NCBI RefSeq assembly: GCF_001618065.1
Contig: NZ_LAEI01000041.1
Coordinates: 54,381 to 86,380, forward strand
From: Neisseria flavescens
GTDB taxonomy: Bacteria > Pseudomonadota > Gammaproteobacteria > Burkholderiales > Neisseriaceae
Direction of reading: 5' to 3'
Length of the DNA stretch: 32,000 nt
The translations under genes and the position numbers were made by a program. The notes under the pieces are model-generated. The model was not told the DNA's origin, made no database searches, and saw only the letters and a list, made by a program, of their open reading frames with translations. Of the stretch, positions 8,452-13,050 are shown piece by piece. The stretch's first letter is position 1, and each line of letters starts with the position of its first letter.

Positions 8452-9954
8452 TCAGCCTTGCATTTGTTTGGCTTGAACGGCAGTCAGGGCGATGGTGAAG
8501 ACGATGTCTTCAATCAATGCGCCGCGGGACAAGTCGTTAACCGGTTTACGCAAGCCTTGCAGCAACGGGCCTACGCTCAGGACGTTGGCGCTGCGTTGTA
8601 CGGCTTTGTAAGTACAGTTGCCGGTATTGAGGTCTGGGAAAACCAAAACGGTTGCTTGACCGGCGACAGCGCTGCCCGGAGCTTTGGATTGGCCGATAGA
8701 TGGAACGGTAGCCGCATCGTATTGCAGCGGGCCTTCGATGGCCAAATCAGGGCGTTTCTCTTTCGCCAGTTTGGTTGCTTCGATCACTGCATCGACATCA
8801 GGGCCGCTGCCTGAGTTGATGGTAGAGTAGGAAATCATGGCTACTTTTGGATCGATACCGAAAGCTTTGGCGCTGTCGGCAGATTGGATGGCGATGTCGG
8901 CCAGTTGTTCAGGCATTGGGTTCGGATTAACCGCGCAGTCGGCAAATGCCAATACTTGGTTAGGCAGCAACATGAAGAATACGCTGGATACGAGGCTTGC
9001 ACCCGGAGCGGTTTTAATCAGTTGCAGGGCAGGACGGATGGTATTGGCAGTAGTGTGGACTGCGCCGGAAACCAAACCGTCCACGTCGTTTTGAGCCATC
9101 ATCATGGTACCCAGTACGACGGTGTCTTGCAGCTGTTTGCGTGCATCTTCAGGAGTCAGGCCTTTGGATTTGCGCAATTCGCACATCGGCTCAACGTATT
9201 GCTCAACCAAAGTAGCAGGATCAATGATTTCCAAAGAATCAGGCAGGGAGATACCGCGTTCTTTCGCTACGGCTTCAACTTCTTCGCGGGTAGCCAACAG
9301 TACGCAACGGGCGATGCCTTTTTCGTGACAGATAGCGGCGGCAGCGACGGTGCGTGGTTCTGCGCCTTCAGGCAGAACGATGCGCATATCGGCTTTGCGT
9401 GCGAAATCGATCAGGTTGTAACGGAATTGAGCTGGAGACAGGCGTTTGGCTTCGCGTTTGGCCAAAGCGGATACATCTTGCAGTTTGTCGCTGGAGCCGA
9501 AGAAAGTCAGGCCGGTTTGCTCGGCAACTTGTGCGCCTAAAGCGGCTGCTGCGCCGTCAATGATAAAGCCTTCCAATAAGCCCGGGGAGTTGGTGTAGAG
9601 CTGTTTGGTGAGGTTTAATTGTTGGGCGACGGTGGCTGCGTCGGTGTTGTCGGATTTCAGCGCCAATACAACGCCTGCGTCCAAAGACAACGCCAATTCG
9701 ATGTTTTTGCCTGCCAAGAACAATTTGTCTGCATCAGGAGTGATGCCTTCGATAACGAGGTTATCTGCATTCAATGCTGCAACTTTACCGACAAGTGCGT
9801 CAAACCAGTCGTCGCTCTTGCCTTGAGCCAACAGGGCTTCTGTAGTGGAGTCAACGGCTTGGAAAACTTGTGCATTTAATGCCGCTGCGAATGCTTTTGC
9901 CGCTGCATCGGCGCTCAGGCCGGTAGATACCGGTGCGATCAGGATTTTTGCCAT
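8452..9954 (-). CDS. pta: Phosphate acetyltransferase Pta with a short N-terminal domain
   Basis: C-terminal PTA_PTB domain (IVLPEG..., ...[10 protein letters not shown]...). Start moved to the ATG at 9954 (MAKILIAPV), which follows the agagagga RBS. Confidence 0.9.
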
Positions 9955-10102
9955 TTTGTGTCCTCTCTTTCGGTGATTGTAGAAGGGTGTTGCTGGGGCG
10001 CAGCTGGTGCTGCATTTTATCACTTTGGGATAACATATACACGGTCATATTGACATATGTCATCAGGCCGTCTGAAAAGTATAAACGCAATGGACCAAGT
10101 CC

Positions 10103-10168
10103 ATCAATCCCCAATTGCCGCCAAAAGCTCGGCTTGATGTTCGGCAATCAGGGCATCATGATTTTCTC
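10103..10168 (-). pseudogene. Orphan remnant of the prfA 3' end (last ~17-21 codons plus stop)
   Basis: 10103-10156 aligns to 11973-12026 with 3 mismatches. Weaker similarity, with a 1-nt indel, continues to about 10168/12039. On the minus strand it reads ..[16 protein letters not shown], against ..[16 protein letters not shown] in the intact prfA. Confidence 0.75.
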
Positions 10169-10384
10169 TAAAAGTATCAGTTTACATATTTACTCAAAAT
10201 AAATATTTTTTAATTTTAAAAAAGATCGCACTATTTTAAATATACTGTTCATAGGGGAAATTCTGGTATTCAGGTAATTTAGAAATGGAGATCAGTGATT
10301 GAAGGTTAAGTCATAATTTTTGGAAGTATTAGAGTATCAGTAAAATAGAAATGAGTAAGACAAAGTTTGATTAATTCATTGGGA

Positions 10385-10418
10385 AAGGCCATCTGAAATT
10401 TTTGTTTCAGATGGCCTT
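10385..10418. terminator. Variant-DUS hairpin terminator after the DUF805 gene
   Basis: aaGGCCATCTGAAa-tttttg-tTTCAGATGGCCtt. Both arms carry the same variant (GCCATCTGAA), so pairing is kept. Confidence 0.6.
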
Positions 10419-10429
10419 ACTCTAGAAGG

Positions 10430-11065
10430 TTAGTTTTCAGGCATACTACCCCATTGATTATCCCCATTGAAGGATGGTTGGCACATCAAAACAATTAGCC
10501 AGATTGGGCCAATAATAGGAATAAGTATAATGAGAAACCACCAACCTGATTTTCCTATATCATGGAGACGGCGAATAACGACAGATAAAGATGGAATAAT
10601 TACAGCTAGAGCAAATAGGTAATATAGGAGGAAGAAAATATCTCCAAGACTTCTGCTAATTTCAGACATTATTATTGCGACAATAAAAATGGAAAAATCT
10701 GCAATTATTCTAAAGAGTGTATATCCCCAAAATTCTCGTTTGGATGCTCTCCCTGAAAATTGTGCATAACGTTTAGATAGCGTTTCCAAAAATAAGGCAA
10801 ACAGTGATAATTGTCCATTTTCATTTCTGGATTGCGCCACAGTATTGAATGCATTTACGACATTATTAGATGAACTGCTATTTAGTGCCTTGTAAATACC
10901 AATAGCCTGACCATCTCCATTAATATCAAAATCAACATTCATGCCTCGAGTAGGAATGTTTTGTTCTTTCCATTCTTCGCTTTTAAATGGATAACGCTTA
11001 CCATCCTCCCCGTTGATCAGACCACCACCGTTTTGAATTGAAAAGTCTAAAATTTGTCCCTTCAT
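10430..11065 (-). CDS. Membrane protein: N-terminal cold-shock-like beta-barrel fused to a DUF805 (YhaH/YhaI family) domain
   Basis: DUF805 signatures FSGRASKREFWGY and RRLHDIGKSGWW..IPIIGPIWL....C.P...G.N.WG, with 3-4 hydrophobic helices. N-terminal 60 aa: GQILDFSIQNGGGLINGEDGKRYPF...GMNVDFDI. ATG at 11065 with the aggag RBS; the track GTG at 11074 lies inside that RBS. Confidence 0.8.
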   Translation of the reverse strand: MKGQILDFSIQNGGGLINGEDGKRYPFKSEEWKEQNIPTRGMNVDFDINGDGQAIGIYKALNSSSSNNVVNAFNTVAQSRNENGQLSLFALFLETLSKRYAQFSGRASKREFWGYTLFRIIADFSIFIVAIIMSEISRSLGDIFFLLYYLFALAVIIPSLSVVIRRLHDIGKSGWWFLIILIPIIGPIWLIVLMCQPSFNGDNQWGSMPEN

Positions 11066-11083
11066 TTGTATCACTCCTAATAT

Positions 11084-11392
11084 TTAATTGATTTCTAAGT
11101 AGAAACTACTTTTATCTTTATTCTGCCATTTAATTGAGTAAGTGATGTTTTCACTTCCTTTTGTTGTGGTCAATTTGGCAGAACATACTCTTATTTCGGC
11201 ATCATGATTAACGGCAGTTTCTTCCACATCATCCAATGAAACAAATTGACCTAAAAGAAATGAGCGTTGGTTAATGATTTTTTTAACCAAATCTTCTGCA
11301 TCACTTGAACCGCATGAAGGTAAGCCCCCCATACAACCAGTTAATAACATTACTGGTAAAATCCCAGCAAAGAGATAGTGTTTAATTTTCAT
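11084..11392 (-). CDS. Small lipoprotein of unknown function
   Basis: Signal peptide plus canonical lipobox LLTGC. RBS gaggtg. 18 nt upstream of the DUF805 gene, so the two are likely co-transcribed. Confidence 0.7.
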   Translation of the reverse strand: MKIKHYLFAGILPVMLLTGCMGGLPSCGSSDAEDLVKKIINQRSFLLGQFVSLDDVEETAVNHDAEIRVCSAKLTTTKGSENITYSIKWQNKDKSSFYLEIN

Positions 11393-11430
11393 TTGGTCAC
11401 CTCAAGATTTAAAGTTTCATAAAAATGGAA

Positions 11431-11489
11431 AAGTACAGTAAAACTGTATGAAGTATTGCATTTAAGTATTTTTATGTCAAGAAGTACAG
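11431..11489. promoter_or_regulatory. Divergent promoter region with candidate operator repeats
   Basis: Palindrome TACAG-taaaa-CTGTA at 11434-11448. The octamer AAGTACAG is repeated at 11431-11438 and 11482-11489. The region lies between the divergent lipoprotein and XRE genes. Confidence 0.45.
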
Positions 11490-11533
11490 CAATACAATTT
11501 CAATTGAATCTATTTCTCTCTAATATCTTTTGC

Positions 11534-11872
11534 ATGAATATAAGTCGTGCAATTAGATTTTTGAGAAAACAAAAAGGTTGGACACAGCAGCAACTTGCTG
11601 ATTTTGCAAATACTTCGAAAAGTAATATCTCCAATCTTGAGAATGGTAATCAAGGATACAGTGAGGCTATCTTAAAATATCTTGCTGATGCATTGGGATG
11701 CCGTGTTTCGTCTATTTTTCTGCTAGCAGAATACTTGGAAAGACAGCAAAACAATACATTAAAGGATTTAGAAGAAATGCCGGTCGAACTGATTTTTTTA
11801 CAACTTCCTGAACCTTTACAACAGTCTTTTAAATTATTGATGATCCAGACCTTGGAGCAAATCTCAAAATAA
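11534..11872 (+). CDS. XRE (Cro/CI-type) helix-turn-helix transcriptional regulator
   Basis: HTH_3 pattern LRKQKGWTQQQLADFANTSKSNISNLENGN. ATG at 11534 (MNISRAIRFL). The upstream 26 codons in the track begin at a TTG and look non-coding. Confidence 0.8.
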   Translation: MNISRAIRFLRKQKGWTQQQLADFANTSKSNISNLENGNQGYSEAILKYLADALGCRVSSIFLLAEYLERQQNNTLKDLEEMPVELIFLQLPEPLQQSFKLLMIQTLEQISK

Positions 11873-11904
11873 ATACTGTTTTATAGGTTTGTTTGTTTTT
11901 AAAT

Positions 11905-11940
11905 AAAATCCGTCTGAAATTTACATTTCAGACGGATTTT
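11905..11940. terminator. Variant-DUS hairpin between convergent XRE gene and prfA
   Basis: aaaaTCCGTCTGAAat-ttac-atTTCAGACGGAtttt. Both arms lack the leading GC of the canonical DUS. Confidence 0.65.
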
Positions 11941-11972
11941 ATATTGGTAATGATGATCAGAGTGAGGCAAAT

Positions 11973-12039
11973 ATCAATCCCTCATTGCCGCCAAAAGCTC
12001 GGCTTGATGCTCGGCAATCAGGGCATTGGTGATTTCTTC
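11973..12039. repeat. Direct repeat partner of 10103-10168 (the functional prfA 3' end)
   Basis: See the pseudogene feature. The two copies are offset by 1870 nt. Confidence 0.75.
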
Positions 12040-13050
12040 CAAGTCGCCGTCCATCACAAAATCCAGTTTGTGCAGGGTAAGGTTGATGCGGTGGTCGGTC
12101 ACGCGGCCTTGCGGGTAGTTGTAGGTGCGGATGCGTTCGCTGCGGTCGCCGCTGCCAATTAGGGATTTGCGTTCGGCGGCTTCTTTGGCTTGTGCTTCGC
12201 GTTTTTGCGCGTCGTTTAAGCGGGCGGCGAGGACTTTCATCGCCTGTGCTTTGTTGGCATGTTGGCTGCGGCCGTCTTGGCATTCGACCACCATGCCTGT
12301 CGGCAAGTGGGTAATGCGGACGGCGGAGTCGGTTTTGTTGATGTGCTGACCACCAGCACCGGATGCGCGGAAGGTGTCGATGCGCAGGTCGGCCGGGTTC
12401 AGTTCAATGTCTTCCAGTTCGTTTGCTTCGGGCATGACGGCAACGGTACAGGCAGAGGTGTGGATACGGCCTTGGCTTTCGGTGGCAGGAACGCGTTGTA
12501 CGCGGTGGCCGCCGGATTCAAATTTCAGACGGCTGTATGCGCCCAAGCCGATAATGCGGGCGATGACTTCTTTATAGCCACCTAATTCGCTTTCGTTTGC
12601 GGAAACGATTTCAACCTGCCAGCGGTTGCGCTCGGCGTAGCGGCTGTACATACGCAGTAAATCACCTGCAAACAGCGCGGCTTCGTCGCCGCCCGTTCCG
12701 GCGCGCACTTCGATGAAGATGTTTTTGTCGTCGTCGGCATCTTTTGGCAATAGCAGTTTTTGCAATTCGGTATCGAGCGTGTCGATTTTGGCTTTGGCCG
12801 CTTCGATTTCTTCGGCGGCAAAGTCTTTCATTTCGGGGTCGGACAGCATTTCTTCGGCATCTGCCAAGTCGCTTTGCGCCAGCTGATAGTTTTGGAAGAC
12901 TTCGACTACGGGGGTCAGTTCGGCGTGTTCGCGTGTGAGTTTGCGGTAGTTGTCCATGTCGGACGTGGCTTCAGGCTGACCGAGCAGGTGCGTGACTTCT
13001 TCCAGTCGGTCGCTGAGTTGTTGTAGTTTTTCTAAGATAGACGGCTTCAT
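11974..13050 (-). CDS. prfA: Peptide chain release factor 1
   Basis: GGQ motif ([10 protein letters not shown]) and PxT-type decoding region ([10 protein letters not shown]). Start moved to the ATG at 13050 ([10 protein letters not shown]). Confidence 0.95.

Follow-up and report, generated by a model that had tools for sequence, protein, structure and literature searches.

How a 1,816-bp, AT-rich islet came to lie between two copies of the 3′ end of prfA, the gene for peptide chain release factor 1, is the question raised by a locus of Neisseria flavescens on contig NZ_LAEI01000041.1 (54,381-86,380). This whole stretch of 32,000 nt is called the window below, and positions without a locus identifier follow its numbering. 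The answer that we favour, with a probability that we put slightly above even, is a one-off illegitimate recombination during transformation, after which the product spread by homologous recombination. The two copies form a 54-nt direct repeat (10103-10156 and 11973-12026) in which 51 of 54 positions are identical and 3 are mismatched, and their local alignment scored 94, compared with 20.7 +/- 2.5 for shuffled neighbouring sequence. This alignment confirmed the repeat that an earlier note, made from the sequence alone, had described together with an orphan gene end reading ..AELLAAIGD*. The same note had called the ~1.8 kb between the copies AT-rich, and the islet (10157-11972) does contain 32.9% G+C against 48.5% in the rest of the window. 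The weaker similarity that it had followed further, to ~10168 and 12039, was recovered as patchy matches over about 10-19 nt with one indel, but was not significant on its own. The islet/orphan junction shows a 3-nt ATG overlap together with patchy matches, too short for significance. The orphan copy lies 148 nt away from the pta start, and none of the open reading frames (ORFs) of at least 40 aa listed for the window ends at it.

Whether the islet was inserted into a formerly intact locus was addressed by comparison with other genomes. A scan for PrfA in one genome per species yielded 80 loci, and a scan of metagenomes with a degenerate 28-nt pattern taken from the repeat yielded 28 contigs. 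Empty sites with a single prfA end numbered 25, namely 3 species-representative genomes and 22 metagenome contigs, and were organized as prfA, a 150-165-bp spacer and then pta. The three empty close relatives, Neisseria sp. 27098_8_112, N. subflava C2011009653 and N. flavescens CNF, were each ~95.5% identical to the window over 21 kb. The pta protein of the window showed 97.8-99.2% identity to that encoded after prfA at the empty sites L001, L005 and L007, while its PrfA was 98-99% identical to that of the N. subflava/mucosa/sicca group. In the alignment, the orphan copy and all of the sequence beyond it were colinear with the empty sites, and the boundaries of the repeat were sharp. The empty sites that the earlier note had proposed as a check, with pta next to prfA and a single 3′ end, were thus found, and with the colinear orphan side they support its view of an insertion that brought its own prfA end and carries no recombinase.

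The occupied state was observed at 26 loci besides the window (27 including it), all with identical junctions. Neisseria sp. HMSC078H04 (L003) possesses the islet with proteins 100% identical to those of the window and with two repeat copies, and the metagenome contigs other than the empty ones comprise five with the same islet and one that is truncated, so that about one fifth were occupied. The islet context was identical in 20 of the 20 long occupied contigs that were read, and the exact cargo proteins are indexed in 2,104 (the 211-aa DUF805 protein) and 2,867 sample blocks. A second copy of the locus's own prfA end within 10 kb was found at none of the 79 other species' loci except L003, which has this same islet. 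Other neighbours, with normal G+C content, surround prfA in the N. sicca/mucosa group, and in the outgroup N. iguanae prfA adjoins pta with no islet. A separate change was seen in one metagenome contig of the complex (L121:2475-3443), in which ~305 nt are missing from the Nramp gene upstream of prfA.

The junctions were identical across 17 of 17 distinct occupied haplotypes, and this single set of junctions indicates one ancestral event. The islet is a presence/absence polymorphism in the Neisseria subflava complex: the 51 other loci of the complex show two states only, empty or carrying this islet, and no other cargo was present at the prfA/pta junction in the 80 species loci, the 20 long contigs or the 28 metagenome contigs. 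The junction therefore does not behave as the accessory-gene landing site suggested in the earlier note, and no general landing site is revealed there. In the course of events that we propose, a single AT-rich insertion of 1,816 bp would have entered prfA at its 3′ end in an ancestral member of the Neisseria subflava/perflava/flavescens complex, by illegitimate recombination of the type known as insertion with long target duplication and with no recombinase involved, most likely during natural-transformation uptake of foreign Neisseria-type DNA. The insertion would have duplicated 54 bp of the target, one copy completing the essential prfA gene and the other being left as an orphan beside the native pta spacer and promoter. 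The inserted DNA would be a self-contained module, closed at each end by a hairpin terminator, in which an XRE repressor gene diverges from an operon encoding a lipoprotein and an OB/DUF805 protein. Later, the islet would have been gained and lost among strains via transformation and homologous recombination in the flanks, and would persist today in its polymorphic state.

The repeat alleles bear on how the two copies arose. The two copies of 16 further occupied haplotypes show 0-2 nt of difference, and each ends in ..GCAATGGGGGATTGAT (MGD*; ..AAMGD*), the host-lineage consensus, which is shared by the empty sites and by other Neisseria. The three mismatches in the window are single-nucleotide polymorphisms (SNPs) private to this strain and not, as the earlier note had supposed, the difference between donor and recipient alleles. 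The absence of canonical DNA uptake sequence (DUS) 10-mers from the islet, to which that note had also drawn attention, holds for this copy (0 in the islet; 41 in the window, mostly of the AG-DUS dialect) but is private to the strain as well, since 16 of 16 other distinct occupied haplotypes carry 1-2 of them. The islet of the window has none because of a compensatory double substitution (G>T / C>A) in the arms of the hairpin at 11903-11942, which destroyed both canonical DUS but left the 18-bp stem intact; in L003 and the 15 haplotypes compared, this hairpin is an inverted pair of canonical DUS.

Nucleotide diversity was 0.008 in the islet, 0.050 in prfA, 0.040 in the spacer and 0.036 in pta, the islet being ~6-fold less diverse than its flanks. 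Beyond 50-100 bp of the repeats, the flanks were equally diverse among occupied loci, among empty loci and in comparisons of occupied with empty loci. This pattern fits a single, fairly recent insertion whose linkage to the flanks has been eroded by frequent homologous recombination ending at heterology, and it is compatible with flanking homologous recombination as the route of exchange. Repeated site-specific integration predicts the same pattern, which does not choose between the models. The low diversity of the islet does count against the reverse order of events, in which the islet would be the ancestral state and the empty sites the product of deletion between the repeat copies. Recombination between 54-bp direct repeats would remove the islet precisely, and some empty sites may be such deletion revertants. 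Even so, some insertion or duplication would still be needed to account for the repeated gene end, the break in G+C content is clear, and the islet is missing from most lineages of the complex that were sampled and from the outgroup N. iguanae. We consider an ancestral islet scarcely credible.

A more serious competitor, which we nevertheless regard as unlikely, derives the islet, as a remnant or satellite, from a site-specific integrative element that used the prfA 3′ end as its attachment site and whose tyrosine or serine recombinase was deleted or, as with cis-mobilizable elements, acts in trans. Such an origin would suit direct repeats that include the end of a conserved gene with its stop codon and restore that gene, and imperfect prfA-like similarity does continue on the islet side of the orphan copy. 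The low G+C content of the islet, the XRE repressor-like gene near one of its ends and the sharp diversity step at the repeats also favour it, although homologous recombination ending at heterology predicts that step too. Against it, the islet has no recombinase or transposase gene, nor does the sequence within 10 kb of it in the 20 long occupied contigs for which genes were listed, where the neighbours are housekeeping genes. Neither a larger nor an alternative element occupies the site in the 51 other loci, and the 79 other species have no duplicated prfA end. Islet DNA had no match in the phage and plasmid collections, and the viral contigs contained neither the repeat core nor the DUF805 protein of the islet. 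Moreover, homologous cassettes are found at pepN/relA and at rho/rdgB between flanking repeats unrelated to prfA. The same observations speak against site-specific integration followed by loss of the recombinase, which was one of the two mechanisms offered in the earlier note.

The other mechanism, illegitimate recombination after transformation, gains from a second duplicated gene end at the same gene. N. sicca VK64 (L002:9104-10082), a metagenome-assembled genome (L010) and a subflava-complex metagenome contig (L132:1883-2861) carry an ~840-bp insert at the prfA 5′ end. A gene for a 220-aa lipoprotein lies in this insert together with a DUS hairpin of the mucosa dialect, and 78 nt of the prfA start are duplicated around it, with 90% identity over 61 nt. 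Of the two copies, the functional one carries an N. elongata-type allele, and in N. elongata (L014) the 220-aa lipoprotein gene lies natively upstream of prfA with no orphan copy. To judge by these alleles, the insert looks like the donor/recipient signature of illegitimate recombination after interspecies transformation. A further case, from genomes of the N. polysaccharea type, is a maf (MafB toxin/immunity) island next to the homologous cassette (L101:5643-9225, L109:4604 onward, L110:4604-7700), which is flanked by a duplication of ~46 nt; the duplicated sequence is a DUS hairpin terminator and is single-copy in a strain without the maf island (L104:5635-5696). Together, the prfA 5′ insert and the maf island show that such events recur in Neisseria without recombinases. 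Illegitimate recombination thus stands as the more plausible of the two earlier proposals, with an analogue at the 5′ end of the same gene, although the allele evidence first advanced for it was wrong.

The structure of the product is also exactly that expected of a Campbell-type event, in which a circle with the cassette and a captured prfA end of ~54 bp (or longer) recombines by a single RecA-mediated crossover that duplicates the homology. A stretch of 54 bp is within the range usable by RecA, and the two copies were originally identical or nearly so. On the other hand, Neisseria takes up transforming DNA as linear single strands, there is no known source of such a circle, and no replicon or plasmid match was found. 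The event is improbable in our estimation, and by sequence alone it is indistinguishable from the illegitimate recombination that we favour.

Several points weigh against that favoured explanation. The donor arrangement that it calls for, in which this cassette natively follows prfA, was not found in the 80 species loci. The repeat runs from inside prfA to exactly 1 nt past the stop codon, in the manner of an attP/attB pair, and the patchy similarity continuing on the islet side resembles such a pair as well. The published class into which the islet would fall has no established mechanism, and no experiment shows how such duplications form. Finally, the low diversity of the islet is partly a matter of ascertainment, 20 of the loci having been picked by exact identity of a cargo protein; the XRE gene and the non-coding parts of the islet, neither of which entered this selection, are as uniform as the rest.

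Features of the islet and its flanks in the window (position, strand and the evidence or remark for each)
Feature	Position	Strand	Evidence or remark
pta (phosphate acetyltransferase, 500 aa)	8452-9954	-	Pfam PTA_PTB, E = 1e-121; conserved flank on the orphan side
Native prfA-pta intergenic spacer	9955-10102		Colinear with its counterpart at L001, L005 and L007 (empty sites)
Orphan prfA 3′-end copy	10103-10156	-	..AELLAAIGD*; at the exact position of the prfA end in empty sites
AT-rich islet tail	10157-10384		No ORF, no database match; not homologous to the cassettes of other species
Hairpin of two near-DUS arms (GCCATCTGAA)	10385-10418	-	14-bp perfect stem, -21.7 kcal/mol, z = -8.3
Inner-membrane protein, OB domain + DUF805, 211 aa	10430-11065	-	Pfam DUF805, E = 7e-31, residues 103-209; downstream of the lipoprotein gene
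Small lipoprotein, 102 aa	11084-11392	-	ORF with lipobox LLTGC; divergent from the XRE gene
Divergent control region	11393-11533		Candidate promoter and palindrome
XRE-family helix-turn-helix regulator, 112 aa	11534-11872	+	Pfam HTH_3, E = 3e-11; convergent with prfA
18-bp perfect hairpin	11903-11942		-23.4 and -24.3 kcal/mol, z = -8.6 and -9.5
Functional repeat copy	11973-12026	-	Last 50 nt of prfA + TGA stop + 1 nt
prfA (peptide chain release factor 1, 358 aa), intact	11974-13050	-	Pfam PCRF and RF-1 domains

The question then arises of what the islet carries and whether its cargo could have moved it. Searches of the islet in Pfam, NCBIfam, PHROG, PADLOC and Rfam generated no match to a recombinase, nuclease, transposase, defence-system or RNA family. 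A known defence system was considered and rejected, PADLOC having returned generic helix-turn-helix matches only. The XRE protein was called by the gene callers as a product of 112 aa in 18 of the 20 contigs. The lipoprotein could be assigned to no family in Pfam, NCBIfam, PHROG or PADLOC and yielded only 7 clusters of homologues; its family is almost confined to Neisseria, and in the contexts examined its gene always adjoins the DUF805 gene. For the membrane protein, a GTG start giving 214 aa was discarded in favour of the actual start, an ATG three codons downstream that gives 211 aa. Its AlphaFold2 model (mean pLDDT 86) has an N-terminal five-stranded barrel followed by a helical membrane domain, and in Foldseek residues 1-~65 matched CspB with a TM-score of 0.75 and a root-mean-square deviation of 2.1-2.5 A. 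Residues 1-60 are accordingly modelled as a cold-shock-like OB domain, that is, a predicted fold of the nucleic-acid-binding type tethered to the inner membrane. The OB domain of the DUF805 protein is kept from Neisseria to Acinetobacter, and the protein matches phrog_12855, annotated as 'moron membrane protein'.

Putative control elements complete the module. A promoter scan of the minus strand identified TTGACA-17-(TG)AATACT at 11480-11452 (10/12 matches), which is accompanied by the palindrome TACAG-N5-CTGTA at ~11435-11449. Conservation of both elements extends to the cassettes of N. cinerea, N. polysaccharea and N. animalis, making four species with that of the window, and the palindrome is likely to be the operator of the XRE regulator. 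The hairpin of near-DUS arms is likely the terminator of the lipoprotein/DUF805 operon, while the 18-bp hairpin could terminate transcription from both sides, of prfA and of the XRE gene. As to function, a regulated envelope or exclusion role of the cargo is our guess, and the predicted membrane-tethered, cold-shock-like fold makes the membrane protein a candidate for a part in phage exclusion or DNA uptake. A homologue of the OB/DUF805 protein with 45% identity was also seen at L114:803-4594, where its gene adjoins AlpA-like and YagK/YfjJ-like genes; these neighbours suggest that this type of protein is carried on P4-like islands in other bacteria.

The same module resides at two further chromosomal sites. 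At pepN/relA in N. cinerea and N. polysaccharea (L101-L106, L109-L111), homologues with ~70% protein identity are arranged in the same three-gene order, sometimes with the maf island in between, and a version with 47% identity is located at rho/rdgB in N. animalis (L107-L108). In Acinetobacter the membrane-protein homologue stands alone. The DNA homology of the other cassettes to the islet is confined to 11854-10430, at 72-73% identity. The cassettes at pepN/relA and rho/rdgB are old separate residents and not recent copies. They too are AT-rich, and they are placed between direct repeats of 41-48 nt that consist of DUS hairpin terminators; in N. animalis, the loop sequence of the flanking repeats is identical as well. 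An empty comparator for the pepN/relA site was not obtained, the pepN homologues that were looked up lying in a different synteny.

Taken at face value, these locations could mean that the cassette inserts itself, as a new autonomous unit that makes target duplications of 40-55 bp and prefers hairpin-forming sequences. The cassette is present at three chromosomal sites in three lineages, each time AT-rich and enclosed by direct repeats 41-54 nt long, hairpins can form in all three of the repeated targets, and the modelled OB fold of the membrane protein is of the nucleic-acid-binding type. None of the three proteins, however, has a nuclease or recombinase domain, and the DUS-hairpin repeats may be the units' own terminators or recombination products of dispersed DUS hairpins. 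Empty comparators are lacking for both pepN/relA and rho/rdgB, and with only 72% identity in DNA between the cassettes no recent movement between the sites is visible. Duplications of this kind are also found around inserts that are not cassettes, namely the maf island and the lipoprotein gene at the prfA 5′ end. We therefore give self-insertion of the cassette a very low probability.

The hairpins can also be read without a self-inserting unit. The 54-nt target is an inverted repeat, albeit imperfect (consensus CCCTGATTGCCG-N21-CGGCAATGGGGG). For DNA hairpin stability it is among the top 1-3% of windows of its length in 13 kb of the empty-site genomes L001, L005 and L007, where this segment lies at 11028-11081. 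Each repeat at the homologous cassettes and at the maf island comprises an entire DUS hairpin terminator with 3-6 further nt on either side. It is conceivable, as a long shot, that hairpin-forming inverted repeats are favoured sites for long target duplications in Neisseria, which would then arise by a structure-specific, recombinase-free and non-random route. If so, breakage of a cruciform or hairpin, unfolding, fill-in and capture of transforming DNA would be its steps, and the XRE/lipoprotein/OB-DUF805 cassette would be a recurrent passenger of the route or even its promoter. As a general rule, hairpin targets were rejected: the 78-nt duplication at the prfA 5′ end is not hairpin-prone, with ~80% of windows folding at least as stably.

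Some further details of the locus were recorded. The prfA-pta spacer contains one AG-DUS at 10065-10076. In the AT-rich tail of the islet, an Rfam search for non-coding RNA returned hairpin noise only. A direct repeat of 21-22 nt (CTCAAAATAAATA..) links the tail (10193-10214) with the 3′ end of the XRE gene (11863-11884); its score of 30 is of borderline significance, the maximum of 300 shuffles being 28, and it may be a trace of an older rearrangement. This echo was all that turned up when a longer hidden duplication joining the islet ends was considered, and that candidate was dropped. A Neisseria dif site in the tail was likewise rejected, since the match found by eye, 8/11 in one arm with the XerD arm unmatched, was judged to be due to chance.

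It remains to place the islet among known systems. DNA transposons and insertion sequences differ from it in that no terminal inverted repeats are present at the islet ends, no transposase is encoded and the duplication is 54 bp long. Elements flanked by att sites but devoid of an integrase are known, such as the cis-mobilizable elements (CIMEs) of Streptococcus thermophilus ICESt1/3 and cargo-only satellites of integrative islands. The islet resembles these in its direct repeats, which include and rebuild a gene 3′ end with no recombinase in cis. It differs from them in that no cognate autonomous element or integrase for the prfA site was found in the 80 species loci and in that its cargo also occurs at other sites without prfA sequence.

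The minimal mobile elements of Neisseria are alternative cassettes that occupy one site between conserved genes and carry no mobility genes. References for these elements are Saunders & Snyder (2002, Microbiology 148:3756) and Snyder et al. (2007). The islet is similarly an accessory cassette between two conserved genes without mobility genes, and its movement is explicable by transformation and flanking homologous recombination. Unlike those elements, its site shows one cargo or none in the 51 other loci, and it possesses a duplicated gene end, a feature not described for them.

Homology-facilitated illegitimate recombination after natural transformation was reportedly described in 2002 by de Vries and Wackernagel and by Prudhomme and colleagues. 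Classical events of this type delete recipient DNA and do not duplicate it. The recombinase-free capture in a competent species is shared with it, the ATG overlap at the islet/orphan junction may be its short microhomology, and the analogue at the prfA 5′ end has a donor-type allele. The islet departs from it by duplicating instead of deleting and by having no donor-type allele on the anchor side.

The closest counterpart is the insertion with long target duplication, a type said to go back to Nobusato and colleagues in 2000. Such insertions are delimited by a repeat of >30 bp, an insert of <20 kb and the absence of any other mobile element (Furuta, Abe & Kobayashi 2010, NAR 38:2428, PMC2853133). 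Among the published cases, which come mostly from naturally competent hosts, are repeats of 46 bp that overlap the 3′ ends of genes in H. influenzae, inserts of low G+C content and examples from Neisseria; the cases were gathered for restriction-modification genes, and restriction-induced breakage was proposed as their driver (PMC2853133). The islet agrees with them in being an insert of <20 kb with no integrase or transposase, absent from relatives with colinear flanks, and its 54-bp target is single-copy in empty loci and a direct repeat in occupied ones. Agreement extends to the low G+C content, to the overlap of the repeat with a gene 3′ end and to the naturally competent host. On these grounds the islet is an insertion with long target duplication, an already described kind of insertion and not a new class of mobile element. 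It is unlike the published cases in its cargo, which consists of a regulator, a lipoprotein and a membrane protein and includes neither restriction-modification genes nor a nuclease, and in its population data, which point to later spread by homologous recombination. The locus also shows that an essential gene tolerates insertion into its own end, and it defines a conserved, Neisseria-restricted three-gene module at three chromosomal sites. With 25 empty and 27 occupied loci, it adds to the long target duplications a case without restriction-modification cargo and thereby weakens the idea that such insertions require breakage by restriction enzymes.

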